Positions 1,257 through 16,957 of a DNA stretch of 64,000 nucleotides are shown here, in pieces. The position numbers were made by a program, and so were the translations under genes. The stretch covers positions 32,001-96,000 of the forward strand of contig JBBRPR010000008.1 of assembly GCA_038227875.1 (NCBI GenBank). The letters run 5' to 3'. This DNA is from Planctomycetota bacterium (GTDB taxonomy: Bacteria > Planctomycetota > SZUA-567 > H5-PLA8). Each line of letters opens with the position of its first letter. The first letter of the stretch is position 1. The notes under the pieces were generated by a model. It saw only the letters and a program-made list of their open reading frames with translations, searched no databases and had not been told where the DNA came from.

Positions 1257-1348
1257 CGCACCACCTCGTGGGACCTTCAGGCCAATTGGCCTGAAGGTTC
1301 ATTTGTACCCGGTGACCTTGTCGACCGTGGTCGACAAGGTCGGAGCCT

Positions 1349-1726
1349 CTAGTTCGCGCCGGGAGCTTTGACCGGATTGCCGCCCTTTGACCACCCGCCG
1401 AAGCCGCCAGCCATGCTCTTCACGTTCTTAAAGCCCAGCTTTTTGAGCTGCTGCGCCGCAAACAGGCTGCGCGTGCCGCCGCCACAGTAACAGACGATCG
1501 GCGCGTTTTCGTCCTGCGTGATTTTGAGGATCTGCATCTCGAGCATGCCGCGCGGAATTGGCGTCGCGCCGGGAATGATCCCGCGTTCGTGTTCGAGCGG
1601 TTCGCGCACATCGATGAGAATGTAGGGAAGCTGGCCCTTATCAAAATCTGCGCGGACATCGGTCGTGGACACTTCCGGAATGTCTTTGCGCGCATCGTCG
1701 GCCAGTTCTTGAATGGATCGGAGCAT
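1349..1726 (-). CDS. rhodanese-like domain protein (sulfurtransferase)
   Basis: LIDVREPLEHERGIIPGA and active-site loop CYCGGGTRS. Confidence 0.9.
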   Translation of the reverse strand: MLRSIQELADDARKDIPEVSTTDVRADFDKGQLPYILIDVREPLEHERGIIPGATPIPRGMLEMQILKITQDENAPIVCYCGGGTRSLFAAQQLKKLGFKNVKSMAGGFGGWSKGGNPVKAPGAN

Positions 1727-1747
1727 GAGTTAGGTCCCTTTCTGTGA

Positions 1748-1764
1748 TGCAGTATTGTACTGCA
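1748..1764. promoter_or_regulatory. inverted repeat TGCAGTA-N3-TACTGCA, candidate operator between divergent genes
   Basis: Perfect 7-bp arms 22 bp upstream of the rhodanese start. Confidence 0.35.
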
Positions 1765-1879
1765 ATCAGCGCGGTTTTCCAAAAGAGTCAGGGGCCAATC
1801 TCACCACGTCCCCTTTGACCCGCCGCTGAAACGCTATAAACTTTGTTCACAATTGTAATTCAACTTTCCGGAGAAAACG

Positions 1880-2344
1880 ATGAAATCGCATGAGGTCCTG
1901 AAGCAGGCGATTGCCGCCGGCAATATTAAAACCATGGCGAGCAAGATGGGTCTCTCGACGTCGCTGGTCTATAAGTGGTGTCAGGAACCACCGATCAACG
2001 AGGTTCCCGACCAGAGCGGCGCGAAGAATCCGCTCGACCGCGTCGTGGAGCTCTACCGACTCACCGGTGAGCCGTTTGTGATTTCGTGGGTGTGTGAGCA
2101 GGCCGGGGGATACTTCGTGGAAAACCCCAAGCGCGAACCGGTACCGCCCGGCGCGGCTGTCTTGATGAATACGCAGGCACTGATCAAGGAATTCTCGGAT
2201 CTGCTCGGCGAAGTGTCCAAGGCAGTCGAAGATGGTTCGGGGATTGATCCGCACGAGGCCGAAAAAATCCGCCGCGAGTGGGAGCAGCTCAAACGCAAGG
2301 CGGAATGTTTCGTGGTCGGTTGCGAGAACGGCACGTTCAAGTAG
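1880..2344 (+). CDS. phage regulatory CII-family-like HTH protein
   Basis: N-terminal HTH ([15 protein letters not shown]), NPLDR motif, C-terminal '[18 protein letters not shown]' typical of the P2 CII-like family. Confidence 0.7.
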
Positions 2345-3404
2345 TCGGCGCGGGCCCGTCGTACTTCGCGATGTACTCTTCCGCCTGTTTCACCAGATCC
2401 TTGTTGCCGATGAACAGCGGCACGCGCTGATGCAGTGACGTGGGCTGGACGTCGAGGATGCCCTTGCGGCCGTCGCTGGCGTAGCCACCGGCCTGTTCGG
2501 CGATCATCGCCAGCGGCGCCGCTTCATACAAGAGCCGCAACTTGCCGTGAGGTTTCTTCGGATCCTTGCGGTCGCCGGGATAACAGAAAATTCCGCCCGC
2601 GAGCAGATTGCGGTGGAAATCGGCGACCAGCGAACCGATGTAGCGGCAGGAAAGATTGAGCGTTTCTTTCCCGGTGCTGACGGCGGGCAGATCTTCGCCG
2701 CCCTGCAGATACCGCATGAAGCGCAGCACTCCAGGGCTCCAGAACCGTTCGTTGCCGGTGTTCACGGAATAGTACTGGGCCTTGTTCGGAATTTTAATGT
2801 TGGGGTGCGAGAGAATGAATTCGCCCCAGCGGTGGTTGAGCGTGAAGCCGTGCACGCCAAAGCCGGTCGTGTACACCATCATCGTGCTGGAGCCGTAAAT
2901 CACGTAACCGGCGGCGACGAGTTTGCGGCCCGGCTGCAGGCAGTCGGCGAGCGTGCCCGGTCCGTGTGTGGAGGTGCGCTGGTAGATGGCGAAAATTGTG
3001 CCGACGCTGACGTTGTAATCGATGTTCGATGAGCCATCGAGCGGGTCGTAGAGCAGCACGTATTTTCCAGTCGGGTATTTATCAGGAATGGGAATGATGT
3101 CAGCGCTTTCCTCGGAAGCCATGCACGCCAGACGGCCGGTGTGATCGTTGAGGCGGAAGATCGTGCTGTCGGCGAATTTGTCCATCTTCATCACCTGCTC
3201 GCCCTGCACATTCTCTTCGCCGGCGCGGCCGAGCGTGTCGGTGAGTCCGGCCTGGATGACGTTGCTAGCAATGATTTTTCCGCAAAGTGCGATGTCATAG
3301 AGAATGTTGATGAGGTGGCCGCTGGTGTCGCCGAGCTTGTACTGCTGTTCGAGAATGTGGCGTTCGATGGTGATGATCTGACCGGAATTCGCGCCGTCTG
3401 GCAT
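2337..3404 (-). CDS. fbp: fructose-1,6-bisphosphatase class 1
   Basis: [52 protein letters not shown]; start taken at ATG 3404. Confidence 0.97.
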
Positions 3405-3494
3405 GTTAGTCCCCCGCATCGAGTGCCGATGCACTGGTCATACAAAAGCGCGCGGGATATGCAAATGCGCGCGCAGCGCGCGCCGACGCGCGAG

Positions 3495-3520
3495 GGGTCA
3501 GGGGTCAGGGCCAGGGGTCA
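3495..3520. repeat. heptamer short tandem repeat (GGGTCAG/GGGCCAG)
   Basis: gggtcaggggtcagggccaggggtca; the same family recurs at 44781, 44953 and 59945. Confidence 0.7.
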
Positions 3521-3585
3521 GAGATCGGGGCGAGTACGAGCAGGTCATTTGTCTCCACGCGGTTGAGTTAGAAAAAGAAGAAGAA

Positions 3586-5397
3586 CTACTCGATCTCGCG
3601 GTAAGCGACGTTGTTCAGCGCGGTGCCAGTTGCGTGAATGGCGTCGAGGTTCAGTGCGCCGCGCCGCGTGATTATTGTGCGGCCGAAGCTGAATGCGGCA
3701 TCGATGACCGTTCCCGTGGGCAGGCGTTTGACGATCAGCTCGACGGAGAAGTGGCGGTCGATGCCTTCTACGTTTGTGATCGCGAAGTCTTCGGCGTCGG
3801 CGGCGAGTCCGCGGCTTTCGGGAGCGGGATTGCCGTTTATGGAAACGCCCCATTGAATGCGGCGCTGCGCAGGTTCGAAGCGGAGTTCCAGCGCCTTCGC
3901 CGCGTCACCGAGGCGGATCGCGAATGACTCGCGGGTCTCGCTGGGTTTCACATCGAACTTCAGGTGGAACGACGTCGCCGCGGGAAGCGCGCGCGTCGAG
4001 GCTGGCGGCAGCGACTCGGCGAGTACACGCCATTCGCCGCCCGCGGGAATGAGTTCGGGAAGCCAGCGGATCTCCAGGTTGCCGTCGGCACGCTGTTGCA
4101 ATTCGCGGACGACCAGCACGCCGCCCCAACCGGCACCGTCGTAACAGCCGACCCAACCGGCGAGGATCAGGCGGCCCTTGAACGTGGCAGCCATGGGAAC
4201 CATCAGGCCATCGTAAATGTCCCACGCCGGAGTCGTCACGGGCGACGACGCTGCGGGATGCTTCCAGAACGGCCCGGCGCTCGACCGCGACATGAAGAAG
4301 CCCGTGCGGCCCATCAAAATGTAGTGCCACGAACCGAACTGGAAGTAGCACGGGCATTCGTTGCTCATGCCACTCTGTTCCGCCAGGAAATGAGCTTCGG
4401 CCAGCGTCCACGTTTTGAGATCCGCAGACGTGTATCTTTTCTGGCCGGAGATGACATTCCAAGTGTCCGTCTTGTAAACGCCGGGCTGCACGATCTCCAT
4501 GCAATGATTCTGATGCTTGGTGAAATGTTCGCCGTCGTCGCTGGTCGCCATCCACATGCCGCGGCGGCTGCGCGCGCTCAGGTAGCGTTCGCCGTGCTGC
4601 TCGTAGAACAGGACCATCCGTTCTCCGTCAGAGACGCAGGTGCCGGTACCGATCGCCTCCCACGGTTCGTCAATGGGAATCGCGGGAGGATGCTGCTTCC
4701 ACGTGCGCAGGTCGGCGGAACTCAAGTGATAAAACTGATGCGCGCCCGCCATCCATTTGCTGCCATGCTTGCGCCGGTCGTGGAGGTAGAACAAATGCAG
4801 CTCGCCCTTGTGAACGCAGAGCATCACGTCGCCGGCGGTCGTGTTGTGTCCGCGCGGACGCCAATACTGGGGAAGCTGGTCCTCCTTGCCGAGCAGTGCC
4901 GTGGCGCGCTTCTCGTCCGGTGCCGGAATCTTCGCGAAGAGCTCCGCATCGGAGAGATCGCAATTGAACACCTCCGCGCGTTTGACAAGGTCGGAGCGCA
5001 CCACGACCGGTTCACCGCGCAATGGCGTGAATGGCCACTCTTCGTCGACGAGGATGCCATCCACGAACAGTTCCACGCGGCCCGGCCGCCGACGCACCGC
5101 GACCGAAAGTTCGCGCCCGAATTCCACTGAGGTCAACGGGCAGGTCAGCGAAAAGATCCCGAACTCCATATTCAGCGGCACTCCCCAGCCGGGACGTGAT
5201 CGGCGCTCAGTGATGTCGCCGGTCGGGATCTGGACTTTGATCGTGCAGCGTAGCGTGGCGCGGGTCTCGTTCACGAGGAAGTCGAGGCGGCAGTCGCCGA
5301 GGAGAATTTCATGTTCGCCCTGTCGTGAGGGCACGCGCACGTTCAACACCCAGGTCGCGCGATCGTCGCCGGAGTGTGTTTCACCGATGTTTTTCAT
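3586..5397 (-). CDS. glycoside hydrolase, GH32-like five-bladed beta-propeller
   Basis: GDVM..HKGELHLFYLHD, HLSSADLRTW, IGTGTCV, SNECP, C-terminal beta-sandwich. Confidence 0.7.
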   Translation of the reverse strand: MKNIGETHSGDDRATWVLNVRVPSRQGEHEILLGDCRLDFLVNETRATLRCTIKVQIPTGDITERRSRPGWGVPLNMEFGIFSLTCPLTSVEFGRELSVAVRRRPGRVELFVDGILVDEEWPFTPLRGEPVVVRSDLVKRAEVFNCDLSDAELFAKIPAPDEKRATALLGKEDQLPQYWRPRGHNTTAGDVMLCVHKGELHLFYLHDRRKHGSKWMAGAHQFYHLSSADLRTWKQHPPAIPIDEPWEAIGTGTCVSDGERMVLFYEQHGERYLSARSRRGMWMATSDDGEHFTKHQNHCMEIVQPGVYKTDTWNVISGQKRYTSADLKTWTLAEAHFLAEQSGMSNECPCYFQFGSWHYILMGRTGFFMSRSSAGPFWKHPAASSPVTTPAWDIYDGLMVPMAATFKGRLILAGWVGCYDGAGWGGVLVVRELQQRADGNLEIRWLPELIPAGGEWRVLAESLPPASTRALPAATSFHLKFDVKPSETRESFAIRLGDAAKALELRFEPAQRRIQWGVSINGNPAPESRGLAADAEDFAITNVEGIDRHFSVELIVKRLPTGTVIDAAFSFGRTIITRRGALNLDAIHATGTALNNVAYREIE

Positions 5398-5400
5398 GAT

Positions 5401-6261
5401 CTATTTTTCCCACGGTCCGTTGCGGCGCAAGGCCGTCGGACTCAGCCCAATGGATTGCCGGATGAATTTGGAAAACGAAAACTGGTCGGCAAAGCCGAAG
5501 TCTTCCGCGATGACGCTGAGCGGATCGTTACTGATCAGGAGTTGTTCGATGGCGCGCGCCGCCAGTTGCTGCCGGTGCCACGTGCGCGGATTTACGCCAA
5601 ACTGTTCGCGAAACCGCCGCGAGAAATGTTCGCGTGAGCTGCCCGCGCGCGTGGCAAGCCTCGCGACATCCGCGCCGCCGGCCGGCGCGTGCGCGAGGTG
5701 TTCGAGCGTGCTCTTCCACTGGCGCGCCACCTGCAATTGAGACGATACGTCGGTCCAGCGGATGTTGACGAGCCGCCCGAGGTGCCAGCGCAGCAGCGCT
5801 TCGCTACGCAACCAGTCTTCCGGTTGCTCCATTTTCAGCGCCGACCACGCATCCAGGGAATCTCGCCTGGCGATGCGGCAGGATTTCAACTGCGCCGACG
5901 CGCCCAGCACGTCATGGCCCGGCGCAGCCTCGAGGCGAAAATGAAAACCGATCAGGCGCAGTCCGCTCTCGAATTCGAACTGATACAGCCGGCGCGCCGG
6001 GAGGAACAGGACTGTTCCTGGTTGGAGTGGCAGCGTGGTGCGGCTGGCGACATCCACGACACGACCGCCGCGCGCGGGCGAACCGTGCGGCACAATGAAG
6101 AGGCGGTGGTAGTCGATGCGATTGCGATTGAGCAGACGTGAAAAAATGTCGCGCCGTGCGTGCGGGCAGATCAGGCGCAGGACGCTGCGGCTCCAATTCC
6201 AGAGGTCGCCGGATTGTGCGGGTGGGATGCCGTCGCTGGCCTGGCGGGTTTCGGTGCTCAC
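5401..6261 (-). CDS. AraC family transcriptional regulator
   Basis: C-terminal HFSRRFREQFGVNP...IAEDFGFADQFSFSKFIRQSIGLSP. Confidence 0.9.
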   Translation of the reverse strand: MSTETRQASDGIPPAQSGDLWNWSRSVLRLICPHARRDIFSRLLNRNRIDYHRLFIVPHGSPARGGRVVDVASRTTLPLQPGTVLFLPARRLYQFEFESGLRLIGFHFRLEAAPGHDVLGASAQLKSCRIARRDSLDAWSALKMEQPEDWLRSEALLRWHLGRLVNIRWTDVSSQLQVARQWKSTLEHLAHAPAGGADVARLATRAGSSREHFSRRFREQFGVNPRTWHRQQLAARAIEQLLISNDPLSVIAEDFGFADQFSFSKFIRQSIGLSPTALRRNGPWEK

Positions 6262-7115
6262 GCGCCGATTCCTGAAACGTCGCGCGCCAATTCAACCGCG
6301 CCCAGCAGGGCCGTGTCGTAGCCCAGGGCACTGATCACGACTCGCGGTTTCGGGACCAAGGGTGTGCCCTCTTCAACGACACGTCGCGCGGGTGCGACAA
6401 ATTTCTCGCCGGCTCCAGTGACCACGCCGCCGCCGAGCGCGACGACTTCCGGCGCCAGCAGCGTTGTGGCATTGCGCAGGGCGATTCCGAGCAACCGGCC
6501 CGCATCGGCCCACACCGCGTCGTCCAATTCAGCTGCCGGCCGGCCGAAGCGCTTCTGGAGCGAGGTCCCCGAGACCAGCGCCTCCAGGCAATCGTACGAT
6601 CCGCATGCGCAAGGTACGCGCTCCGGCAAGCCGGAGGGCACCGATTGGTGGCCGAATTCTGGATGGCAGCCGTTCACGCCGTGAAAGATCTGCCCGTCGG
6701 TGATGAATCCGCCGCCGATTCCCGTGCTGACGGTAACGTAAAGCAGGCGGTGCACGCCATGCGCTCCACGCCGGAACTCCGCGAGCGCCGCGGCGTCGGT
6801 GTCGACGGCGATGCGGCTGGGCGCGCCGGTCCACGATTGAAGGTGCGCGACGATCGGAACATTGCGCCATTCCGCCTGGTGGAGCGGACTGGCGACACCG
6901 GTCTCCGCGTTCAGCGGTCCGCCGAGCGTGGCGCCGACGCCGACGATCCGGTCGGGGCCTTTTAGCTCAGCGATAGTGGAGCGAAGATACGCAAGCCCAT
7001 CGGCAAGAGATCGCGGCGTTGGCGCGCCGGTGCGGCGTAGGATCTCGCCGGAGGTGGTGGCTGCGGCCACCTGGATTTTCGTACCGCCGATGTCGCATGC
7101 GATCAGGATGCCCAT
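6258..7115 (-). CDS. ROK family sugar kinase
   Basis: DIGGTK, AAALAE, TGIGGG, EFGH, CACGSYDCLEAL; start at ATG 7115; overlaps the araC start by 4 bp. Confidence 0.93.
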   Translation of the reverse strand: MGILIACDIGGTKIQVAAATTSGEILRRTGAPTPRSLADGLAYLRSTIAELKGPDRIVGVGATLGGPLNAETGVASPLHQAEWRNVPIVAHLQSWTGAPSRIAVDTDAAALAEFRRGAHGVHRLLYVTVSTGIGGGFITDGQIFHGVNGCHPEFGHQSVPSGLPERVPCACGSYDCLEALVSGTSLQKRFGRPAAELDDAVWADAGRLLGIALRNATTLLAPEVVALGGGVVTGAGEKFVAPARRVVEEGTPLVPKPRVVISALGYDTALLGAVELARDVSGIGA

Positions 7116-7674
7116 GTCTGAAACATAGCATGGGGCGGATCCAAATACCATGGCTACATCGGATGTTGAGATGTCCGAATGTGATCTATGTTGAACGGAC
7201 CTAAGCAGAGCCCATCCTACTTTCCAAGCTAAAACTGCCGTGATGGATCTGTTGGAATACAAGACCCAATTTGCGTTGAAGCGGGACGAGTGTCGGCAGA
7301 TCGTACTCGCGAGCAGACTCAAAGTGACGTATATGAAGAAAATCGCCAGGGAATTCGTCCGAATCGTTCAGTCGTAAGGTTCCGCCAAACGATTGAATCG
7401 TCACACCGGTTGCTTCATCTGTTCGCCACTTTTCAAGATTTTTAAAAACTGTCAAAAATGAGAAAGACGATAAAGACGATGTTTGCTATAGTCTTTGCGT
7501 CAAATTAACTTCGGAAGGGCAGGTTCTCCGTGCTGCAGATCGGATGCCTGCTGTTTTGAATAAATGTGCTCGGAAGCCGTCTGACTCGCAGTTAATTATT
7601 TGGTTGACGAATGGGGACAACCAAATTAAATGCTCGGTGTGCGTTTTTGATGTCATCTCTTTTTGGAGGGGTCG

Positions 7675-8154
7675 ATGAAAAAGACTGTAATGATGGCGTG
7701 TATGCTGTTGAGTTTGGTTGCGGCTCGGGCGACGTTTGCTGCGACCGTGATGCTCGAAGATGCCAAGCTGGAGATTCCGGTTCCCGAAGGCTGGACTTCC
7801 GAAAAGGAAGCGGCCGTCGCGGTGCTCACCGCGCCCGACAAGGCCATGGCGATTGTGCTCGTCTCGCTGCCGGCTGAAAAGGCGGACAAGGCCTTTGAAG
7901 CGCTCGAAGACAAGCTCGACAAGGCCGTCGGCAAGGTGAAGTGGGACAAGAAGGGTACGAAGGACAAGCTCGCCGGCGTCGACGTTGAAATCTGGAACGG
8001 CACTGCCAAGGACGGCTCGCTCCAGGTCGAAGCGATCTACATGGATATCGGCGAAAAGACCGTCGGCATCTACTGGTTCGATTCTCCGGAATCGGAAAAG
8101 AAGTACGCCAAGGATATCGACACCATCTGCAAGGGAATGGCGATCAAGAAGTAA
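7675..8154 (+). CDS. secreted hypothetical protein
   Basis: GGAGG SD, signal peptide MKKTVMMACMLLSLVAARATFA, strong codon bias, followed by a terminator. Confidence 0.8.
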   Translation: MKKTVMMACMLLSLVAARATFAATVMLEDAKLEIPVPEGWTSEKEAAVAVLTAPDKAMAIVLVSLPAEKADKAFEALEDKLDKAVGKVKWDKKGTKDKLAGVDVEIWNGTAKDGSLQVEAIYMDIGEKTVGIYWFDSPESEKKYAKDIDTICKGMAIKK

Positions 8155-8177
8155 GTTCGGTTCGTCGTGAATGGTTG

Positions 8178-8214
8178 GCGGCCCCAGGTGAAAAGCCTGG
8201 GGCCGCTTTTTTTT
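8178..8214 (+). terminator. rho-independent terminator
   Basis: gcggccccagg-loop-cctggggccgc followed by a T-tract. Confidence 0.9.
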
Positions 8215-8246
8215 ATCTCACGCAAAGCCGCTAAGACGCAAAGAAC
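8215..8246 (+). repeat. 32-bp dispersed REP-like repeat ATCTCACGCAAAGCCGCTAAGACGCAAAGAAC
   Basis: Exact reverse complement of 38479-38510; near-identical to 38359-38390. Confidence 0.85.
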
Positions 8247-8349
8247 GGCGGGATTCGGGGTGACGTGATTCGGGATTCGATGCGAGTTCGAGTGGGCGAA
8301 GCGCGATTCTTAATCCCGATTTCCCAATGTGCGTGTCCGCTGTAGTCGG

Positions 8350-10622
8350 TCATTTTCCGGATTTAATTTGTCTTCGGATATTTTCCAGGTGCTGCCGCGC
8401 TTCGGTGTCGTTGGGGTTGAGCTCCAAGGCTCGAACGTAGTGTTGGGCGGCTTCGGCGTGTTGGTTGGTCTTCTCGAAGACGAGGCCCAGACCCCGGTGG
8501 AGCGACGCATCGTTGGGGATGGCGCGGAGCGCGGTGTCGTAGGTGTCGATGGCATCGGCGGGGCGGCCGGCTTCGAGTTGCGCGTTGGCCAGCGCGCGAT
8601 AGGCGGTTGGGAATCTAGGATTCACGCGGAGGATTTGCGTCAGGGCAAGACGGTAACTTTTGACGGCGTCTTCGGGCTGGTGCTGGGCGAGATAGATGTC
8701 GCCCATCATCGCGTGGGCGGCGGGATAATCGGGTTGAATCGCGACGGCGTTGCGTAAATGCGTCAGCGCGACATCCAGATGCTGCAGGCTGAAATGCGCG
8801 GCGGCAGAATTGACTTCGGCCACCGCGAGCTTGGGATTGAGCTTCAGCGCCTGTTCGAAATAGTCGAGCGCGGCGGCGGGCTTGTTCTGGTCAAGCATGA
8901 CCTGACCCATGTTGCTGTAGGCTTCGGCAAAATTCGGCGCGAGCTTCGTGGCGGCCTCGAAATGCGCCATGGCTTCGTCGAAGCGCTTCAACTTGCAGAG
9001 GCTGATGCCCAGCTGCGATTCGACGGTGGCGTCGGGCGCGAGCTGCAGCGCGGCATTGAATTCGGTGACGGAGTCTTCGATGCGGTCGATGGCGAAGAGC
9101 GCGTTCCCCAGCGCTGCATGGGTGCGCGCGACGGTCGCGTTCTTCTGGTTGGCCTGCGTCAGCGCGTCGACGGCTTCGGCGAAGTGGCCGAGATCGTGGA
9201 GTGTGATGCCGAGGTTGGTGAGAAAATCGGGGCGGGGGAGCAAGCGCACGGCGGTGCGGAATTCCTGGACGGCTTCTTCTTTCCGTCCGACTTCCACCAG
9301 GGCGAAGCCAAGATTGTTGTGGCCGCGCGCATGATCGGGCGCGCCTGGACGATTTTTTGCCAGACGTGGAGCACTGAATCGTAATCCTGATTCCGCACGA
9401 ACGTCCGGAGGCTCAAGGCCATGGCGAGCAGGGCGATGAGGCCTAACGCCAGCCGCCGCGCATGGGCCGGAACGACGCGGCGCGCGAGTTCGGTGAACAG
9501 CAGGACGATTGCGGTGATCACGGCAACGAGCGCCAGGTACATGCGGTATTCGACGGCCAGATCTTTTAGCGGCACGAGACTTGAGCTCGGCGCGAGCGTG
9601 ATGAAAAACCACGCGCCTAGCAGCGCGAACGGAGCGCGTTTGATCACGCCGTACACCGTCGCCAAGGCAAACGTTCCAACTATTGCGCAGGCCGGGGCGA
9701 GGTCGCTGGCGGATGCGGCGGGCCAGCCGTAATCGAAGCAGAGCGCATCGGGCCACACGGCCAGCCTCAGATAATGGAGGATCACCGCGGACGGGTTGAG
9801 CAGGTACTCCCACGACGTCATGGGATTTTCATTAATGTTGGCGGACTTTGCGACGCCGCCAAATTTCAGCAACAGACCCAGCACGATCCAGCTGGCAAAC
9901 AAGCCTGCGTAGAATAGTTTCGACTTGCGCAGCGCAGATCCGAAGGATCCGGCGACGAATTGGCGGTCGATCAGTAGTACGAGAATGGGCGCGCCAACCA
10001 TGACTTCTTTGCAACTCATGCCGAGCGTGCAGGCGAGCACGGATCCAGTCAGCAACAGGCGCCGTCGCGACGCGTAAAGGCCGCGGAGCGCCAGGTAGAG
10101 CGTCAGAAAGAAGAAAAAGCCCATCATCGATTCGCAGCGCTGGGTCACGTACGTCACGGCTTGGGTATTGAGCGGGTGGACGGCCCATAGCAACGCGATG
10201 CCTGAAGCGAGTAGCGCAGCGAGTTCGGCGAAGCGTTCGTGCAGGAGGCGGCGGAGAATTCCAAACACGAGGAGTGCGGAGCCGACGTGAAGGGCGAGGT
10301 TGACGACGTGGTAGCTCCATGGATTCAGTTCGCTGACGGCGTAGTTAAGCGCCAGTGAGAATGCGACGAGCGGTCGGCCGGTGAGCGAGGTGAAGTCGGG
10401 GGCGCTCAGCACGTATTGCAGCGGCCAGAGTGCGCGGACGTGCGGGTTGAAGACGATGGCGGTGCTGTCGTCGTAGACGAACGGCACGCGCAGCGAGTTG
10501 GCGTACGCGATGACGGTGGCGATGGCGATCAGCGGCGCGCTGATCAGCGCGTTGCCGGGGAGTTTGAAGCGTATCGGATCAGATTCAGCCAACTTAATTT
10601 GCCTCATTAGCAAGATCCGCAT
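8350..10622 (-). pseudogene. TMTC-like (GT-C membrane domain + TPR repeats) protein, split by a -1 frameshift near 9337 (true pseudogene or sequence error)
   Basis: N-part YDD...RPL..S.A.NY..YHVVNLALH..HPLNTQAV.Y..QR.E; C-part HNNLG..TPR array in another frame; junction WQKIVQARP / DHARGHNNLG. Confidence 0.85.
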
Positions 10623-10673
10623 CGTATCAGCACGGTAGACTTTTGCGAATCTTGGGCTTAATGTTGAGGCTCA

Positions 10674-11750
10674 ATGGAGCTAAAAAACGATCCTCAGGCC
10701 TTTTACAAGGCCATCCAAGGTTCGCTGCGCGGATTGGCGGGCAGGAATTTGCCCCCGCTGCTGAAACGCTGGCGGAACACGCGCAGCCACGACGTGGCCA
10801 TGCCGAAAGTCAACGCGGACAAATTGCGCTTTCTCGGGCGACTGGGGCTGCTGGATTCCGGCAGCGAAGAGCCGGAGCTCAACCGTGCGTACGCGGAATT
10901 ACTGGAACGCGTGTCGCGGGTTAGCGGCGATGCTCCGGGGATTGCTGACGGCTGGATCGAACTGTTCGCCAATGGTGAATACGGCGTGCTGGACGCCGGC
11001 GTCTGCGGCGTGGAGCCGCAGTGCGGAAAGTGTCCGCTCAGCAGTGGCTGCCGCTACCTTGCCTCGGGTGCGACCGACGCACGGTCTTTTGGTCAGGACC
11101 TGGCGGTCGAACTGCTGAGCGCGGCCGGATCGCAGCCTGCGGATTTGCGATCGGCGGACATGCTGGCGTTCGCGCTTTCCGGCGAACGCGCGGGCGGGGC
11201 GGACATGGCGCGCGCTGAAGCGGCGCTGAAAGCATCGGGCGGCTTGCGTGGGTTGTTTTCGATGAGCGGCGAGGAGTTGCGCAAGCTGGGCTTCGCTGAT
11301 CCGGCCATCGCGCGGCTGCAGGCGATCGCGGAGCTCTGCCGACATTGGGCGGAAGAGATCAAGACGCGCGGGAAAGTGTTCAGACAGGGCAAGGATTTCT
11401 ACGACCATTTCCACCTGCGGCTGCGGGATATGAAGAAGGAAGTGTTCATTGTAGTGATGATCGACCAGAAAAATCGCCTCATTAAAGAGGAGACCGTGAG
11501 CGAAGGCAGCCTGACGGAGACGCTGGTCCATCCGCGCGAAGTGTTTACCAACGCGGTGCGCGAACGGGCGGCGGCGATCGCGGTCGTGCACAACCATCCG
11601 TCGGGGGATCCGGCGCCCAGCACGCAAGACAAGAACATCACGCGCCGCTTGAAATCCGCGGCGACGCTGCTGGGCATCCGTCTGCTGGACCATGTTATCG
11701 TCGGTGACGGGAAATATTTCAGCTTTGTCGAAGAAGACATCATGGAGTAG
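10674..11750 (+). CDS. radC: RadC-like JAB-domain protein with N-terminal extension carrying a four-Cys Fe-S-like motif
   Basis: KEVF, GSLTETLVHPREVF, HNHPSGDPAPSTQD, LLDHVIVG; N-terminal CGVEPQCGKCPLSSGC. Confidence 0.9.
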   Translation: MELKNDPQAFYKAIQGSLRGLAGRNLPPLLKRWRNTRSHDVAMPKVNADKLRFLGRLGLLDSGSEEPELNRAYAELLERVSRVSGDAPGIADGWIELFANGEYGVLDAGVCGVEPQCGKCPLSSGCRYLASGATDARSFGQDLAVELLSAAGSQPADLRSADMLAFALSGERAGGADMARAEAALKASGGLRGLFSMSGEELRKLGFADPAIARLQAIAELCRHWAEEIKTRGKVFRQGKDFYDHFHLRLRDMKKEVFIVVMIDQKNRLIKEETVSEGSLTETLVHPREVFTNAVRERAAAIAVVHNHPSGDPAPSTQDKNITRRLKSAATLLGIRLLDHVIVGDGKYFSFVEEDIME

Positions 11751-11763
11751 CAAACAGCACGCT

Positions 11764-12486
11764 ATGGTGAGCGCCAACGACAGAGTGACGGAACTGGACA
11801 GGGCCGAATTGGCCGAACCCGATCCGCAGCGGCCGGACCGCCGTTGGTTTGTCTGGTTCCTGAGCGCATTGGCCTTGAATGTGATGGGTATTTTCTGGCT
11901 GGCGGTGCGCGCAGACAGCCCGGAGTCGCTCCGCAACGTGCTGGACGTGCTGATGCAGAGCGCCATCGGTATTGCGGTGGCGGTGGTCGCGTTTCGCGCA
12001 CTGACGTATTTTCCGTACCGCACCAGCGACTTGATGATCATGGTGCTGGTATTGTCCCTGGCGATGAAGCTCACGCTGAGCGTGCTGCAACGCTTCGCGG
12101 CGATCGGCCTGCTGCATCATGGCTTCGCGTCAGGCGACCATCTCGGCGAATTGGTTCAGACCTGCATGATCACTGGCAGCATTCTGATCGGCGGTGGTGC
12201 GTTTGCGCTGCGCACCTGTCAGAAACTAGAGATCCAGCGCCCGCTCCCGCGCGCGGTCGCGCTGGTTGCGGGAATGCTGTCACTCCCTGCCGCGGCGGGG
12301 ACGCTGGTGTTTGGCTTGCTGATTTTCGTGGAAGTCATCAGAGCCAAGCCGGATTACTCGTACACGCCCATGTTCGCGGCGCTGTGGCTGGGCTCAATCG
12401 GGCTGTCGCTGGTGAACGTAACGAATATGGGGCGGATGCTGATGTTGCGGGCGGTGGTTTCGGCGAAGGATCATTTGGCCAGGTAG
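11764..12486 (+). CDS. integral membrane hypothetical protein
   Basis: About 6 hydrophobic segments; starts 13 bp after the radC stop. Confidence 0.75.
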   Translation: MVSANDRVTELDRAELAEPDPQRPDRRWFVWFLSALALNVMGIFWLAVRADSPESLRNVLDVLMQSAIGIAVAVVAFRALTYFPYRTSDLMIMVLVLSLAMKLTLSVLQRFAAIGLLHHGFASGDHLGELVQTCMITGSILIGGGAFALRTCQKLEIQRPLPRAVALVAGMLSLPAAAGTLVFGLLIFVEVIRAKPDYSYTPMFAALWLGSIGLSLVNVTNMGRMLMLRAVVSAKDHLAR

Positions 12487-12507
12487 AGCGACGCAGGCGG
12501 GTGTGCG

Positions 12508-13674
12508 CTAACCCATAATTGCGGTAAGGTGCCAGGAAACAGTGTGCGCTTCGGTGGGGTCGGGAATTTCCAGTTTGTCGATGAGGCGCTCAATTACGCC
12601 GCTCGGGACTTTTGTCGGGCGTTGAGTATTGCGGCGGAGTAATTCCTGATAGGGCGTTTCGAGATAGACGATGCGAATGCGCGCCTTGTAGCCAGCGACC
12701 AGGCGAATGAGTTGGCTGCGCATCTGGCGGGAAATGTTAGTGGCGTTCCAGACGAACGACCGCGCGGCGCGTGCGTGTTCGCGGGCCAATTCTTTCGCGC
12801 GAGCGACGACGGGTCCCTGTTCGTCTTCGGGCCTTATGTTCATCTCGGTGCGAAGTAGATCGAGCGAGATTAATTCGAAGCCGGGTAGATTTTCGCGAAT
12901 CCAGTGGTCCTTGCCGGCGGCGGGCAGGCCGGAGATCAGCACGACGTCGAATTTGCAGTCGTCGTACGCGGCGTACTCCGGCGACGCGTCTTCTTTTTGA
13001 AAATAGACGAAGCGGCTGTGATCCGACGCAAACGTTCGGGGTGCGGTGAGGCATCGGTTCTCCGCGCAGAAATCTTCGAAGAGCGCGATGCGTTCCAGTA
13101 GTTCATTTTTGTCCACGCATTCGCGACCGAGGACGTCGGCTTTCGCGACGAGCGCCAGCCATTGGCACGACACGGTTTGACTCGCTTCAATCACGGCGCG
13201 CTGCGGCGATGTTTTCTCCATGAAAAGCAGGGGCAGACCGTGGTGCCGCACCGTGGCGCAGATGGCTTCACGGACGGACAGCGGCGCCATGTCTTCTCGA
13301 TACATCAGTCCTCGGACTATTTGGGTGCCGTGGCGCGCGTGGCCTTTGGAGGTGATTGTGCCGTCGTCTTGCGTTTGCGTGCAGTGCGGCTTGCCGATGT
13401 CATGAAAGAGCGCCGCCGCCAGAACGATCGAGCGTTCAACGGGCGGGAGCGTGCGCCAATCCTCCAATGATGTGAGCGCTGTGCAAACCATTTGGGTGTG
13501 GATGTGAACGTCGCCTTCCGCGTGCCAGCGCGGGTCTTGAGGGCAGTCTCGCAACGCGGAGATGCATTCCAACTGACTGTCAATGCAGTCCCAGTCCAGA
13601 ATTCCCGATTCGGGCTTCGCGAGCAAGAATGGGACAGTCCATTGGGCTTGAGCGGCTTGGCGATAGAGGCTCAT
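12508..13674 (-). CDS. HD-domain phosphoesterase fused to P-loop polynucleotide kinase (HD-Pnk-like end-healing enzyme)
   Basis: WHAEGDVHIHT, LFHDIGKP, GHA, RHH, AD; C-terminal GLPAAGKD, SLDLLR, WNATN. Confidence 0.9.
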   Translation of the reverse strand: MSLYRQAAQAQWTVPFLLAKPESGILDWDCIDSQLECISALRDCPQDPRWHAEGDVHIHTQMVCTALTSLEDWRTLPPVERSIVLAAALFHDIGKPHCTQTQDDGTITSKGHARHGTQIVRGLMYREDMAPLSVREAICATVRHHGLPLLFMEKTSPQRAVIEASQTVSCQWLALVAKADVLGRECVDKNELLERIALFEDFCAENRCLTAPRTFASDHSRFVYFQKEDASPEYAAYDDCKFDVVLISGLPAAGKDHWIRENLPGFELISLDLLRTEMNIRPEDEQGPVVARAKELAREHARAARSFVWNATNISRQMRSQLIRLVAGYKARIRIVYLETPYQELLRRNTQRPTKVPSGVIERLIDKLEIPDPTEAHTVSWHLTAIMG

Positions 13675-14477
13675 GAGAAACCGCCTTCACTTTCAAAAAT
13701 TTTGACGTCTGACCGCAATCGATTCGGAATGATCGGGCGATTGAGCCAGTGGCCTTCGGCATTGAGCACCGCTGTCAGAAATCCGCGCCGGATAAATTTG
13801 TAGCGATCTTGCACGATACCGTCCTCTTCGATCTTTACGTACAGTCCTTCCATGGTGGTGCTGGGATCTGTTTCGCGTAACGCGCGATCCACGTCTAGTG
13901 CTCGTTCGGTACAATCGCTGCGCAGTTGCTCCAGATGTGAGTCCGAAATGAAGGCGGAATGTCCCAGCAGAGCGGTAATCGCCTCTAACGATTTGATTTT
14001 CCCTGACGACAGTACGTGGACTGACGCGATCGGCAGGCCGGTGAGCAGTTGCTGACGGCGCGGAGTGCTCAGGAACGTTTCGTTTTCGACGTCCAGGATG
14101 TCGAACTCCATGAAGTAGTGTGTCAACTGGTCGTAGAAGACCGTGTGCTTGGCGTATAGCCATTCGCCGTACATGACGTGTTTGCTGCCGAGGCGATCGA
14201 ATAGCGCATCGCGATGAATCTGCGCCCACTGCTTGAAGAGCGTGAAGTGCTTCTCGCGTGCGCCACCCGTCAGAAAATGTCCGCGGCTTTGCAGTAGCAA
14301 TTCGCCGCCGGCACCGAAACTGACGGCGGAGTTTGCTCCGTCGACCTTTTCTTCGACAACGAGGTGGCGGCCGGCCAGTTCTGCAAACGGAACGCTCTCC
14401 ATGTCCTCATCGCCGGGCTGCTGGCGCGAACCGCGGAGATGCCGTGTGCGGGGGTATTTGTAGAGTCGTTGATTCAT
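13671..14477 (-). CDS. ATP-dependent RNA ligase family protein
   Basis: KYPRTRHL, motif I EEKVDGAN, QSRG, GEW, FMEFDI, EGLYVK, RYKF. Confidence 0.9.
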   Translation of the reverse strand: MNQRLYKYPRTRHLRGSRQQPGDEDMESVPFAELAGRHLVVEEKVDGANSAVSFGAGGELLLQSRGHFLTGGAREKHFTLFKQWAQIHRDALFDRLGSKHVMYGEWLYAKHTVFYDQLTHYFMEFDILDVENETFLSTPRRQQLLTGLPIASVHVLSSGKIKSLEAITALLGHSAFISDSHLEQLRSDCTERALDVDRALRETDPSTTMEGLYVKIEEDGIVQDRYKFIRRGFLTAVLNAEGHWLNRPIIPNRLRSDVKIFESEGGFS

Positions 14478-15157
14478 GACGTCACCCGGGCGACAGCGAT
14501 CAGATGGTTGAGTACATGGTCAAACGTGATCGACGATGCACCTGCGTCCTTGAACAATATTTCCAGCGTTTCCTGATTGAACAAATGAATGTGTTCTGGA
14601 TTGTTGTCCTCTTTTGAGGGCACGGAAACAATCACAAAGCGGCTGGCGACACGCATGGCCTCGCGGAGCGCGGCCTGGGCATCGGCGATATGCTCCAGAA
14701 CTTCCAGAAACGTGACGACGTCGAAGGCGCGGTCGGCGAAGGTCATGAGCGTTGCATCCATGACCTGCGCCGAGAGCCGTTCGATGCCACCGTCGCGAAT
14801 GGCCAGCAGATCATCGACTCGCCGCTCTTGCTGGTCGATGCAGGTGACGGGTAACTCCGGAAAGCAGTCCAGCAGAGGCCACAGAAACGCGCCGCGTCCG
14901 CTGCCGATGTCCAGCAGGTCCGATGGCGCGATGCCTTTCAACGCGCCGAGCACTCGATTGACGCGCCTCAGTCCCATCGTTCGCTTGAATTTGTGGAGAC
15001 GCAGGTCGGCCTGACGGCCGAGAGTCAGGATCTCCTCCAATTCCAGCGCGGTGAGGTCGTTCAACGGTTTGGCGCGGTAGTCATTGGGCAGAACGACGGC
15101 AGTCTTGCCGCGGATGAATGCGACGGCAATGCGCGTGAAGTAGTTGTCGCTATCCAT
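14474..15157 (-). CDS. class I SAM-dependent methyltransferase
   Basis: LLDIGSGRG, FDVVTFLEVLEHI, VSVPSKEDNNPEHIHLF. Confidence 0.9.
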   Translation of the reverse strand: MDSDNYFTRIAVAFIRGKTAVVLPNDYRAKPLNDLTALELEEILTLGRQADLRLHKFKRTMGLRRVNRVLGALKGIAPSDLLDIGSGRGAFLWPLLDCFPELPVTCIDQQERRVDDLLAIRDGGIERLSAQVMDATLMTFADRAFDVVTFLEVLEHIADAQAALREAMRVASRFVIVSVPSKEDNNPEHIHLFNQETLEILFKDAGASSITFDHVLNHLIAVARVTS

Positions 15158-15863
15158 GGCCCATCCCCCTGATCTCAGCGCCGTACTGCGCCTTGAGCGC
15201 TTGGATCTCTTTGGAATTCAACTGTCTCTTTCCCACGGCGTAGGCGTGGTCGCCGTAGTATTGAGCAAAAGTGGCGTACGTCTTGTGAATGCAGTAGCAC
15301 TTTAAAACCACGTCCCACACCAGGGCTCGATCGTTGGGCAGTGGTTTGAGCTGAACCTCGAACCAGATGCCGTTCAATTTTCGATACTGCGTCAGCGCAT
15401 CGACGGTGAGGTATTCCTTGGGCGCCGCGACTTTGCGGCGCCTGTAATTGGGATTCTCGCGCAGCATTCGAGTTTCGGGATCCACATAGAATCGCTGCCA
15501 GATTCGCCGTCCGCTTTGATCCAGATAGATTCCTTCGCGTTCGAAGACGTTGATGCAGACGTACTGGATGACGTGTTGCCAGATGTGTAGCTGCACGACC
15601 GAGTTCAAATTGATGCGCTCGCGGATTTCGGAGTTCACATCGTCCCAGTGCCGGCCCAGGTTGGAGCGAAGAAAGCGGCGCAGGGGCGCGAGGTTTTCGT
15701 TCAGCCATTTTGGATTGCGGCTCCAATGCCGTTGCATGCCCTCCTTCGTGGGCCATTCGTCCATGGGCATACGTTGCAACGCGCGTAAACTTCCCTTGGG
15801 TGTTTTGTATCCGCCGCCGCCGCGCGGCCGTTCCACGATGATTTTGGCCATGTCTTTACGCAT
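15150..15863 (-). CDS. conserved hypothetical basic protein, first gene of the putative RNA repair operon
   Basis: AAGGA SD; MRKDMAKIIVERPR, LNENLAPLRRFLRSNLGRHWDDV.SEI, FYVDPET, KRQLNSKE; overlaps the next gene. Confidence 0.8.
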   Translation of the reverse strand: MRKDMAKIIVERPRGGGGYKTPKGSLRALQRMPMDEWPTKEGMQRHWSRNPKWLNENLAPLRRFLRSNLGRHWDDVNSEIRERINLNSVVQLHIWQHVIQYVCINVFEREGIYLDQSGRRIWQRFYVDPETRMLRENPNYRRRKVAAPKEYLTVDALTQYRKLNGIWFEVQLKPLPNDRALVWDVVLKCYCIHKTYATFAQYYGDHAYAVGKRQLNSKEIQALKAQYGAEIRGMGHG

Positions 15864-16071
15864 GGATTTTCCTTACGAAGGCATAATTTCTCCCCGTCAA
15901 AAACGCGCAACGCGTTTTGAATGTGTGACGTCGGCTCATGCGTGGAGCGGCGCGAGAACGCGCGCTCAAACGATAGAGCACATCATCGGAATTGAATTGG
16001 GCAGGGGGCTCGGACGGAACAGATTTGGAGGCGTGTCAATGAAGACACTTGGGCATAGCGTAAGACAACGT

Positions 16072-16131
16072 TTACTTCGCGATGCTGGATCCCAATCTCG
16101 TCGGGGCACCTATAGTCGTTGGTCGCGTCAT
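16072..16131 (-). CDS. possible 19-aa leader peptide MTRPTTIGAPTRLGSSIAK
   Basis: GAAAGGA SD 7 nt upstream of the ATG, downstream of TTGACA at 16203-16208. Confidence 0.3.
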   Translation of the reverse strand: MTRPTTIGAPTRLGSSIAK

Positions 16132-16217
16132 GGACTGATCCTTTCAGGCGGCGGCGGTCAGAGCCGAAGCCAGTGGGACAATTAACCCTGCGGATTGTGG
16201 AGTGTCAAGAGTTCAGA

Positions 16218-16256
16218 GAACAAAACTCGCCGCAGGATCGCGGCGAGGTTTTGTTC
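16218..16256 (-). terminator. rho-independent terminator
   Basis: ctcgccgc/gcggcgag stem with flanking A/T tracts; same stem as 27722-27753. Confidence 0.75.
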
Positions 16257-16294
16257 GGTTCAACTTTCAACTTTCTCGACTCAACTCACCGCCG

Positions 16295-16957
16295 TTACGG
16301 CAGTTCCTCGCCGGGCGAGATTTTTTTCTTTCTCGCTTCGATCATTTCGCGGGCGGTTTTGTATTGGGGGACGGGTTCGGCGGGGTTTTCTTTCTTGATC
16401 ACCCGGACGCAGTAGGCCGGCCACTGGAAACCATCAACACGGAGGTTCTCTTCCATGTGGTCGATGGCGTAATCGCCGCGCGCCAGGCGCGCCTTGAGTT
16501 CATCGATGGCGAAGATGCGTTTGCCGGGGCCGGTGAGCTTGTCGCGGAGCGCGGAGAAGAAACCGTGGCTTGCGGGTTCGAAGAGCACCAGTTTACCGTC
16601 GGGAACCAGCACGCGGTGGAATTCGGCGAGCACGGTCCACGGCGGACGAATTGAAAAAAGTGCTTCGAACGACAGTACGGCATCGAAGCTGTGTCTGATA
16701 AAGGGCAGTCGCGTTGCTCTTCCTGCGACAATTTGTATCGAATTGGACACTCCCGATTTTCCGGCTTGCGTCAGCCGTTCAGGCGACGAATCGAGCATGG
16801 TCACGGGGTGTCCGGCGATCAACGGCAGCACGCGTTTGATGCATTCGGCGCCGTGCGGGCCGGGCGTAATCAGCAGGATGCGCTCGCTGCCTTGCAGTCG
16901 GGCGACCCGCATTGCAACGTCGACTACAGTTTCTGCCATCAACACTCCGTCCGACAC
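16295..16957 (-). CDS. class I SAM-dependent methyltransferase-like protein (degenerate motif I)
   Basis: ATRLPF..SFDAV, LAEFHRVLVPDGKLVLFE; motif I reads LITPGPHG. Confidence 0.75.
   Translation of the reverse strand: MSDGVLMAETVVDVAMRVARLQGSERILLITPGPHGAECIKRVLPLIAGHPVTMLDSSPERLTQAGKSGVSNSIQIVAGRATRLPFIRHSFDAVLSFEALFSIRPPWTVLAEFHRVLVPDGKLVLFEPASHGFFSALRDKLTGPGKRIFAIDELKARLARGDYAIDHMEENLRVDGFQWPAYCVRVIKKENPAEPVPQYKTAREMIEARKKKISPGEELP

Follow-up and report, generated by a model that had tools for sequence, protein, structure and literature searches.

A conserved methyltransferase–ligase–HD-Pnk cassette and a putative tRNA-linked accessory gene form one unit in a Planctomycetota genome

The window studied here is a 64,000-nucleotide stretch of DNA from a Planctomycetota bacterium (GenBank assembly GCA_038227875.1, contig JBBRPR010000008.1, positions 32,001–96,000 of the forward strand). 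Between positions 12508 and 15863, it carries four genes on the minus strand, which we call A to D from 5′ to 3′. Genes B, C, and D encode a methyltransferase, a predicted polynucleotide ligase, and a predicted end-healing enzyme of the HD-Pnk type; they form a widespread, tightly conserved three-gene cassette, of which B is the conserved first gene. Gene A belongs to a family without a name, and its relatives recur beside RNA ligases and tRNA genes. We favor, with moderate confidence, the reading that a heal-seal-methylate RNA-repair cassette has been joined in this genome to a tRNA-linked accessory gene.

The open reading frames (ORFs) of gene A (15150–15863; 237 amino acids), gene B (14474–15157; 227 amino acids), gene C (13671–14477; 268 amino acids), and gene D (12508–13674; 388 amino acids) are arranged as an earlier note on this DNA had described them, co-oriented and with overlapping stop and start codons. 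The overlaps measure 8 nucleotides between A and B (15150–15157, read directly), 4 nucleotides between B and C, and 4 nucleotides between C and D (13671–13674). The gene 3′ of D is convergent and ends at 12486, and a terminator-like GC-rich hairpin with a T-run (16226–16247, minus strand) follows the methyltransferase gene upstream of A. This hairpin, a consensus match only (6 such sites occur in the region, and 6.1 are expected by chance), is the upstream limit of the four-gene unit. Because the block is bounded by the hairpin and the convergent gene, A-B-C-D is one unit with a leader of ∼360 nucleotides (15864–16225, minus strand, read from the sequence). The leader contains no σ70 consensus promoter-like site, no Rfam family at E ≤ 0.1, and no tRNA, and its folding is ordinary (z = −0.23). 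Given that gene A has 292 homologs and that the order B-C-D recurs in many unrelated contigs, the four-gene block is beyond chance.

Full-length relatives of the HD-Pnk (cut-off E < 1e-70) were found in 15 of 400 other genomes of the phylum, and 8 genomes of the same family gave weak partial matches only. In the 17 HD-Pnk loci inspected with ∼6 kb of flanking sequence, B, C, and D follow in the same order in 6, one contig ends inside C, C and D occur without B in 7 (plus one locus with a partial C), and D stands alone in 2; no conserved neighbor besides B and C was found among them. A metagenome scan baited with the B family returned at least 433 relatives, and the best 80 were examined with family hidden Markov models at E ≤ 1e-5. 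In these, C adjoins B in 51 of the 53 loci that leave 900 bp or more for it. Where the available sequence reaches 2 kb or more, both C and D are present in 36 of 38 loci, a few being ordered D-B-C.

Gene A is absent from these surroundings, both from the 17 phylum loci and from all 51 metagenome loci with at least 800 bp upstream of B. The same picture is obtained from the side of gene A, whose family has members in 489 stretches drawn from one-genome-per-species data. The counts below refer to the best 80 of them, in which no B, C, or D was detected by tblastn within ∼6 kb of gene A; across 98 gene A loci, the B profile had no match, and the C and D profiles gave weak, non-cassette matches only. 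Of the four-gene operon proposed in the earlier note, the methyltransferase–ligase–HD-kinase unit is therefore the conserved part. Gene A, presented there as an uncharacterized fourth subunit, does not co-occur with the cassette elsewhere and is not one of its subunits.

At two loci from different genomes of the phylum, L126 and L127, a canonical Hen1 (736 and 719 bits; cut-off 340) directly follows the ligase/HD-Pnk pair and is itself followed, after a gap of ∼1 kb, by a canonical Pnkp (1439 and 1413 bits; cut-off 750). This neighborhood ties the pair to RNA repair with methylation. Two different RNA-repair systems thus lie side by side at L126:5240–12119 and L127:3702–12016.

Gene D combines an N-terminal HD phosphoesterase domain (PF01966, 8.3e-9; TIGR00277, 37.7 bits with a cut-off of 27.6) with a C-terminal P-loop domain of the polynucleotide kinase type (AAA_33, 1.1e-21, with weak matches to the bacter_Pnkp kinase and PSTK). 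In the HD-Pnk family (n = 16), residues H51, H59, H91, D92, K95, H112, H145, and D180 are invariant, as are G249, G254, K255, and S270-x-D272-x-x-R275 in the kinase part; the residue following the P-loop lysine is mostly an aspartate. By its domains and by gene order, with a start that overlaps the ligase stop and a ligase/HD-Pnk pairing in 14 of the 17 phylum loci, gene D is an HD-Pnk, predicted to act as a 2′,3′-phosphoesterase and a 5′-OH kinase.

Gene C matches the RNA_ligase family PF09414 (4e-31, 108.9 bits; cut-off 27) and, in PHROG, phage RNA ligase families (8.1e-19). The motif K44-x-D46-G47-x-N49 is invariant in 48 sequences of the C family. The protein consists of the adenylyltransferase domain only and is predicted to be a minimal ATP-dependent polynucleotide ligase of PF09414; no useful close relative was found in the PDB, the best family-profile match having an E-value of 0.013. 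Open frames of ∼640 amino acids that resembled a ligase/HD-Pnk fusion were rejected as high-GC open frames overlapping the separate genes. An assignment of the cassette to anti-phage defense was likewise rejected, PADLOC matching only a generic methyltransferase and HD.

Gene B encodes a class I S-adenosylmethionine (SAM) methyltransferase (PF13489, 8.6e-13; PF08241, 1.7e-12) with a helical N-terminal extension of ∼55 residues. Its AlphaFold2 model is of high confidence (predicted local distance difference test score (pLDDT) of 95.4), and fold searches placed it nearest to AtmM, RebM, and other generic methyltransferases. Residues E152, E155, H156, D184, N186, H189, and H218 are invariant in 48 sequences of the B family. 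We consider gene B a probable O-methyltransferase and infer that its target is an RNA end. In a PDB search with the single sequence, 5 of 12 matches were Hen1 catalytic domains, and hhalign aligned residues 65–184 of B with two genuine Hen1 proteins (96.2% probability, E = 2.3e-9), a comparison in which a good score is expected of any class I methyltransferase. In this alignment, the E-V-L-E-H block of B (E152-x-x-E155-H156) coincides with the E-V-I-E-H block of Hen1, which we take to be the Hen1 metal ligands. The N-terminal ligase-activating domain of Hen1 (∼250 amino acids) is missing in the 227-residue B, hhalign and BLASTP aligning only Hen1 residues ∼267–401. On TIGR04074, the model for bacterial Hen1 (3′-terminal RNA ribose 2′-O-methyltransferase), gene B reaches 22 bits (cut-off 340), compared with 736 bits for the genuine Hen1 from L126. 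By this score and by the profile and fold searches described below, gene B was rejected as a Hen1 orthologue. The Hen1-like methylation of the repaired junction suggested in the earlier note is thus an analogy, and a Hen1-like role of B would follow from context, namely its fixed place beside the ligase and the presence of Hen1 and Pnkp at L126 and L127.

No match to gene A was found in Pfam, NCBIfam (E ≤ 0.01), PHROG, PADLOC, or PDB sequences; the identities Archease, Ro60/TROVE, RlaP (PF10127), and PrfH were rejected, none of the corresponding Pfam or NCBIfam models matching at E ≤ 0.01. All 292 homologs (E ≤ 0.001) are without a name. The taxa include Planctomycetota, Myxococcota, Pseudomonadota, Bacteroidota, Acidobacteriota, and Melainabacteria, and the gene is also found on viral contigs (18 loci, 8 of them distinct), in Myxococcus phage Mx1, and on 4 plasmids. 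It is single-copy in the genome of the window and present in 2 of 16 other genomes of the same family. Residues E11, R12, P13, R14, K52, E56, W73, H93, and H97 are invariant in an alignment of 31 sequences. The AlphaFold2 model (pLDDT 81.8) is confident over residues ∼55–230, and the N terminus is disordered yet conserved. Residues 53–141 give weak structural matches to the winged-helix fold, within the stated noise range of the tool.

The neighbors of gene A read much like a catalogue of RNA-repair and tRNA-supply functions. RtcB (PF01139, 2e-124) is co-oriented with gene A in 23 of the 80 loci by ORF clustering and in 22 by tblastn, mostly directly adjacent but on either side and in variable gene order. 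In 5 loci, a PrfH-like protein (158 bits; cut-off 166.65) is the third gene with A and RtcB; Band-7/SPFH proteins are found near A in 8 loci, DEAD-box helicases in 8, and HNH endonucleases in 5. ATP-dependent ligases of PF09414 also occur beside gene A. One with a PHA02142 OB domain lies ∼450 bp away at L037, one of 229 amino acids stands directly upstream at L038, with RtcB downstream, and another adjoins A at L277; all three are of kinds other than gene C. Single loci hold a Ro60/TROVE-vWA protein (L019), a microbial PARG (L017), or a small methyltransferase (L016). On phage contigs, gene A, a conserved unknown protein of 137 amino acids, and a PolyA_pol/CCA-type nucleotidyltransferase lie on one strand, with a P-loop kinase of the AAA_33/Zeta_toxin type nearby; the row is seen at L134:5998–9706, in the same form at L135, L137, and L138, and at L149 and L151, and looks like a phage tRNA maintenance kit.

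In a control of 49 loci not chosen for gene A (519 kb; L117–L133, L248–L252, and the longer B loci), RtcB occurs once, and PrfH, DEAD-box, HNH, and Band-7 proteins do not occur. If the single RtcB locus is a B-C-D locus, it would provide a further example of neighboring repair systems. The genome of the window itself has four RtcB loci (contigs C59, C102, C26, and C3), all above the Pfam cut-off and none on the contig of the window or beside gene A. In a quickly built tree with 89 rows (the gene A of the window together with 80 genomic and 8 distinct viral sequences, after removal of 10 near-duplicate viral rows), the RtcB label requires 6 changes, at least 4 of which are forced by well supported branches. 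RtcB is found in 7 of the 9 rows of a Myxococcota clade, in 14 of the 18 rows of a Gamma/Betaproteobacteria clade, and in two Planctomycetota rows that stand apart from each other.

The second link of gene A is to tRNA. ARAGORN detected at least one tRNA in 18 of the 80 loci and 5–27 tRNA genes in 9 of them. These nine arrays, all in Planctomycetota, are at L002 (26 tRNAs; 268–3195), L006 (18; 226–2620), L007 (27; 4539–11906), L020 (22; 450–5428), L027 (9; 74–1841), L044 (7; 4653–5531), L019 (7; 3211–5808), L014 (7), and L012 (5). All of their tRNAs are on the strand of A, which lies inside or just after the arrays; at L007, A, an HNH endonuclease, and RtcB are all inside the array. In total, the gene A loci contain 143 tRNAs in 846 kb, compared with 6 tRNAs in 519 kb and no locus with 5 or more tRNAs in the control.

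A related arrangement is seen in the Band-7/RtcB loci of Lysobacter and relatives, which hold a single tRNA-like gene or two in tandem; in several of these genes, ARAGORN could not assign the anticodon loop. At L021, L029, L030, L038, L057, and L079 (∼3600–4500), the tRNA-like gene(s), Band-7/SPFH, A, and RtcB stand in a row, and at L038, the 229-residue PF09414 ligase sits between Band-7 and A. This row may correspond to a previously described SPFH system that includes a tRNA-like RNA.

The phylum of an Obscuribacterales genome (presumably Cyanobacteriota) has gene A in 16 of 300 other genomes. In 11 of the 14 loci fetched, a tRNA-like gene, scoring 35–57 bits on the Rfam tRNA model, lies 45–800 nucleotides from A on the same strand. 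Such genes flank A at L272 (5883–5956 and 7500–7570), with equivalent sites at L270, L271, L273, L276, L278, L279, and L283. The copies just downstream of A have homologous acceptor, D, and T arms but different anticodons (tag, caa, taa, aag, and cta). Because the arms are conserved and the anticodon differs between loci, this variable gene looks less like an ordinary tRNA than like a decoy or a tRNA subject to diversifying pressure. Three of these A-containing clusters have, at equivalent places, a 56-nucleotide match to bacterial 23S rRNA (RF02541 positions 1093–1148, 51–53 bits; L272:2197–2252, L273:3317–3372, and L276:2396–2451), a part that may belong to the stalk/GTPase-associated region. 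L271:6880–7272 encodes an L7/L12 paralog (PF00542, 1.2e-23), and further genes of the clusters encode an AAA ATPase, a vWA protein, ThiF, and an unknown but conserved protein of 285 amino acids.

Comparison with genomes of the same family identifies the four-gene block of the window as an insertion. Homologs of the two flanking genes, a 264-residue membrane protein gene (11692–12486), which is a core gene of the family found in 13 of 16 other genomes, and the gene at 16295–16957, abut each other with gaps of ∼10–90 bp in 4 of the 5 same-family loci fetched (L249–L252). Positions 12487–16294 are therefore an insertion of ∼3.8 kb that contains A-B-C-D and the leader only. A mobile-element signature was looked for and rejected: the site has no flanking repeats, and the composition is not deviant (GC content at third codon positions of 0.65–0.73, compared with 0.73 ± 0.06). 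That one insertion holds exactly these four genes, together with the 8-nucleotide A/B overlap, argues for an expression of A together with B-C-D in this genome, although the combination is unseen elsewhere. As part of the favored reading, the block was probably acquired and has two separable parts, B-C-D and A. The gene at 16295–16957 (minus strand) is a second methyltransferase gene, outside the insertion, with a homolog at the same place in four same-family genomes. Just upstream of the insertion site, and syntenic in relatives, a 358-residue RadC-family protein (10674–11750, plus strand) carries a C-terminal JAB domain (183.7 bits in NCBIfam; cut-off 180) and an N-terminal extension of ∼150 amino acids.

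In the mechanism we propose, the HD domain of D would remove a 2′,3′-cyclic or 3′-phosphate, and the kinase domain would phosphorylate the 5′-OH. The ligase C would then seal the 3′-OH to the 5′-phosphate via a lysyl-AMP intermediate. Gene B would O-methylate the RNA, most plausibly at a ribose 2′-OH of the healed end; activation of the ligase may require it as well, in the way that the ligase partners of Hen1 require Hen1. Gene A would serve as a binding or targeting accessory for a broken tRNA or tRNA-like substrate and would here direct the cassette to tRNA. Since A has been recruited beside mechanistically unrelated ligases (RtcB and at least three other PF09414 kinds) and beside tRNA genes or tRNA-like RNAs, it is expected to act on a shared tRNA or tRNA-like substrate and more probably recognizes an RNA substrate than activates a particular enzyme. 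This makes A a good candidate for a missing substrate-recognition component in the defense of bacteria and phages against toxins that cut tRNA and rRNA. Ligase/HD-Pnk pairs were already known in 2017; the present loci add a methyltransferase that keeps its place next to the ligase in dozens of contigs unrelated to each other.

A number of observations weigh against this interpretation. For the methyltransferase, the best NCBIfam match of B is MftM (63 bits, below the cut-off), and the B family profile places Hen1 only 6th to 7th in the PDB, after RebM (3bus, 5.9e-10) and a glucose O-methyltransferase (6uv6, 1.5e-9). Hen1 is absent from the top 50 structural matches of B in Foldseek and in the VIA-wide search alike, and the hhalign alignment with Hen1 ends short of H189. 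For gene A, the counts come from the best 80 of 489 loci (those for B likewise from the best 80 of at least 433), no tRNA gene was found across the 64-kb window, and 55 of the 89 tree rows have no RtcB, DEAD-box helicase, RNA ligase, Ro60, or CCA-type enzyme nearby, although the labels scored protein partners only and five of the 55 stand at tRNA arrays. The link to the DEAD-box helicase comes from a single clade and may be plain synteny. The window's own A groups with copies from Phycisphaerae and Tepidisphaeraceae that lack these protein partners; of its closest relatives on the tree, two follow immediately downstream of tRNA arrays (L002 and L006), whereas L001, L004, and L011 have no tRNA gene. 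Its fold is equally uninformative, in that Foldseek returned nothing from the PDB at E ≤ 0.001, the VIA-wide matches were all in the noise range, BFVD gave uncharacterized phage proteins only (best E = 1.5e-4), and the atlas gave unnamed clusters. No fusion of A into a longer protein was found, which is weak evidence. Finally, the Runella slithyformis ligase, as reported in PMC6097658, forms the enzyme-AMP adduct but joined none of the substrates tested. The fixed methyltransferase suggests an explanation for this failure to join: like Hen1-dependent ligases, the enzyme may depend on its methyltransferase or on methylation of the end.

The substrate of the cassette could also be DNA. According to this alternative, which we consider unlikely, the cassette mends DNA or any nucleic acid: HD-Pnk would heal 3′-phosphate and 5′-OH ends of DNA after oxidative or radiation damage, the ligase would seal them with helpers, and the methyltransferase would have another target. 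It draws on Deinococcus radiodurans, for which PMC6300522 describes DR_B0100 (the ligase LigB/DdrP), DR_B0099 (PARG), and DR_B0098 (HD-Pnk) as a radiation-induced operon with DNA-damage resistance phenotypes. The HD-Pnk mutant is sensitive to ionizing radiation according to the same source, and DNA-ligase activity is reported there to require DR_B0098 and PprA; these data, too, count against repair of RNA. The 2017 Runella paper, as its title is cited in PMC6097658, likewise calls HD-Pnk a "DNA/RNA end-healing enzyme." An O-methyltransferase-type partner as conserved as B has, on the other hand, no obvious role at a DNA break. The canonical RNA-repair proteins Hen1 and Pnkp lie directly beside the pair at two loci, gene C is a member of Pfam RNA_ligase with matches to RNA ligase families of phages, and the cassette is joined here to gene A, the relatives of which are found clustered with RtcB and tRNAs, all of which speaks against DNA.

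Gene A might alternatively be a winged-helix-like DNA-binding regulator of stress-induced RNA-repair and tRNA operons, comparable to RtcR or the cyanobacterial repressor TrcR, with no part in repair itself. We regard this as quite improbable. The winged-helix matches are in the noise range, Foldseek found nothing, and no helix-turn-helix family matched; A also occurs on phage contigs within runs of small genes, and the 8 nucleotides that it shares with B suggest that it is made in coordination with the enzymes. An identity of A with TrcR was itself rejected, TrcR being a small ribbon-helix-helix protein unlike A.

Least probable of the alternatives, in our judgment, is that A is a chance co-inserted neighbor, or an RNA-damaging or antagonistic element countered by the cassette, without any cooperation with B-C-D: its absence from every other cassette examined, its patchy occurrence in the family, its presence in phages, and a possible active site made up of its invariant His, Glu, Lys, and Arg residues would fit, but the A/B overlap and the single insertion of exactly four genes point to co-expression, RNA ligases of four different kinds have independently acquired A as a neighbor, and no toxin or defense family matches it.

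Beyond the favored reading of a repair cassette joined to a tRNA-linked accessory gene, a more far-reaching proposal can be made, which we put forward tentatively and with more doubt than belief. Gene A would represent a new, wide family of partners of tRNA or tRNA-like RNA that plug into any RNA ligase at hand, be it RtcB or one of several ATP-dependent kinds. The family would belong to undescribed "translation-apparatus decoy and repair" islands, composed of tRNA arrays or free-anticodon tRNA-like genes with a 23S-rRNA-like mini-RNA, an L7/L12 paralog, and AAA, vWA, and ThiF proteins. In the window, A would stand in one operon with the cassette as a tRNA-targeted heal, seal, and methylate machine.

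Among known systems, gene A has three points of comparison. The row of A, RtcB, and a PrfH-like gene in 5 of its loci recalls the RtcB2-PrfH ribosome rescue and repair operon, which the accessible part of PMC9304027 describes as two-component, without mention of an A-like gene; the A of the window has no adjacent RtcB or PrfH. The long tRNA arrays (L-arrays) described in PMC8421152 spread horizontally, are induced by translational stress, and have HNH and rtcB neighbors, and relatives of A are likewise found at arrays of 5–27 tRNAs with HNH and RtcB. The regulon of TrcR listed in PMC10272220 (rtcB, HNH, slipin next to a hypothetical gene, a TIGR02452 protein, and a DMT transporter) resembles the neighbor set of A, namely RtcB, HNH, Band-7/slipin, DMT transporter, and PARG-like proteins. 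Both of the latter studies concern cyanobacteria and, in the portions available, do not mention a protein like A; tRNA genes are absent from the window.

The cassette itself is of a known kind. The precedent that the earlier note saw for pairing a ligase with HD-Pnk is real: in the Runella cluster, as described in PMC6097658, the ligase ORF overlaps HD-Pnk with its 3′ end, and Tpt1 and MTase-HIT are clustered nearby. This cluster and the window share the ligase/HD-Pnk overlap, the combination of HD and P-loop kinase in one protein, and a methyltransferase in the cluster. In the window, the methyltransferase is a stand-alone protein of 227 amino acids that overlaps the ligase from upstream, whereas the Runella MTase-HIT fusion lies in a separate two-gene unit; the window cassette lacks Tpt1, and the Runella cluster, as far as described, lacks a counterpart of A. 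The Deinococcus operon, again going by PMC6300522, has in common with the window a ligase and HD-Pnk in one operon with a patchy distribution among relatives. It contains PARG in place of the methyltransferase, and its phenotypes concern radiation and DNA damage. With these two precedents for ligase plus HD-Pnk, the cassette, put forward in the earlier note as the best candidate of the window for an undescribed system, is a methyltransferase-bearing variant of the known kind. A literature search on HD-Pnk and RNA-repair topics, which did not extend to Munir & Shuman 2017 or Burroughs & Aravind 2016, returned no paper on a stand-alone methyltransferase–ligase–HD-Pnk cassette, and the variant may already be published.

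A comparable logic is found in the Pnkp1-Rnl-Hen1 system and in the two-protein Pnkp-Hen1 system. The Capnocytophaga gingivalis complex is a heterohexamer that heals, methylates, and seals, requires all three proteins for this, and ligates at least 10-fold faster with SAM, as reported in PMC4411300. The parts differ, as the earlier note had correctly observed for Pnkp-Hen1 systems: an HD domain replaces the calcineurin-type phosphatase, the ligase stands alone, and the methyltransferase is short. Pnkp1 is a T4-type kinase-phosphatase whereas the D of the window carries HD, Hen1 comprises ∼460 amino acids with a ligase-activating N-terminal domain whereas B has 227 and fails the Hen1 model, and C and Rnl are not detectably close by profile search. 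Shared by the window cassette and by Pnkp1-Rnl-Hen1, whose repaired junction resists recleavage according to the same account, is the distribution of end healing, a stand-alone ligase, and a methyltransferase over three proteins.

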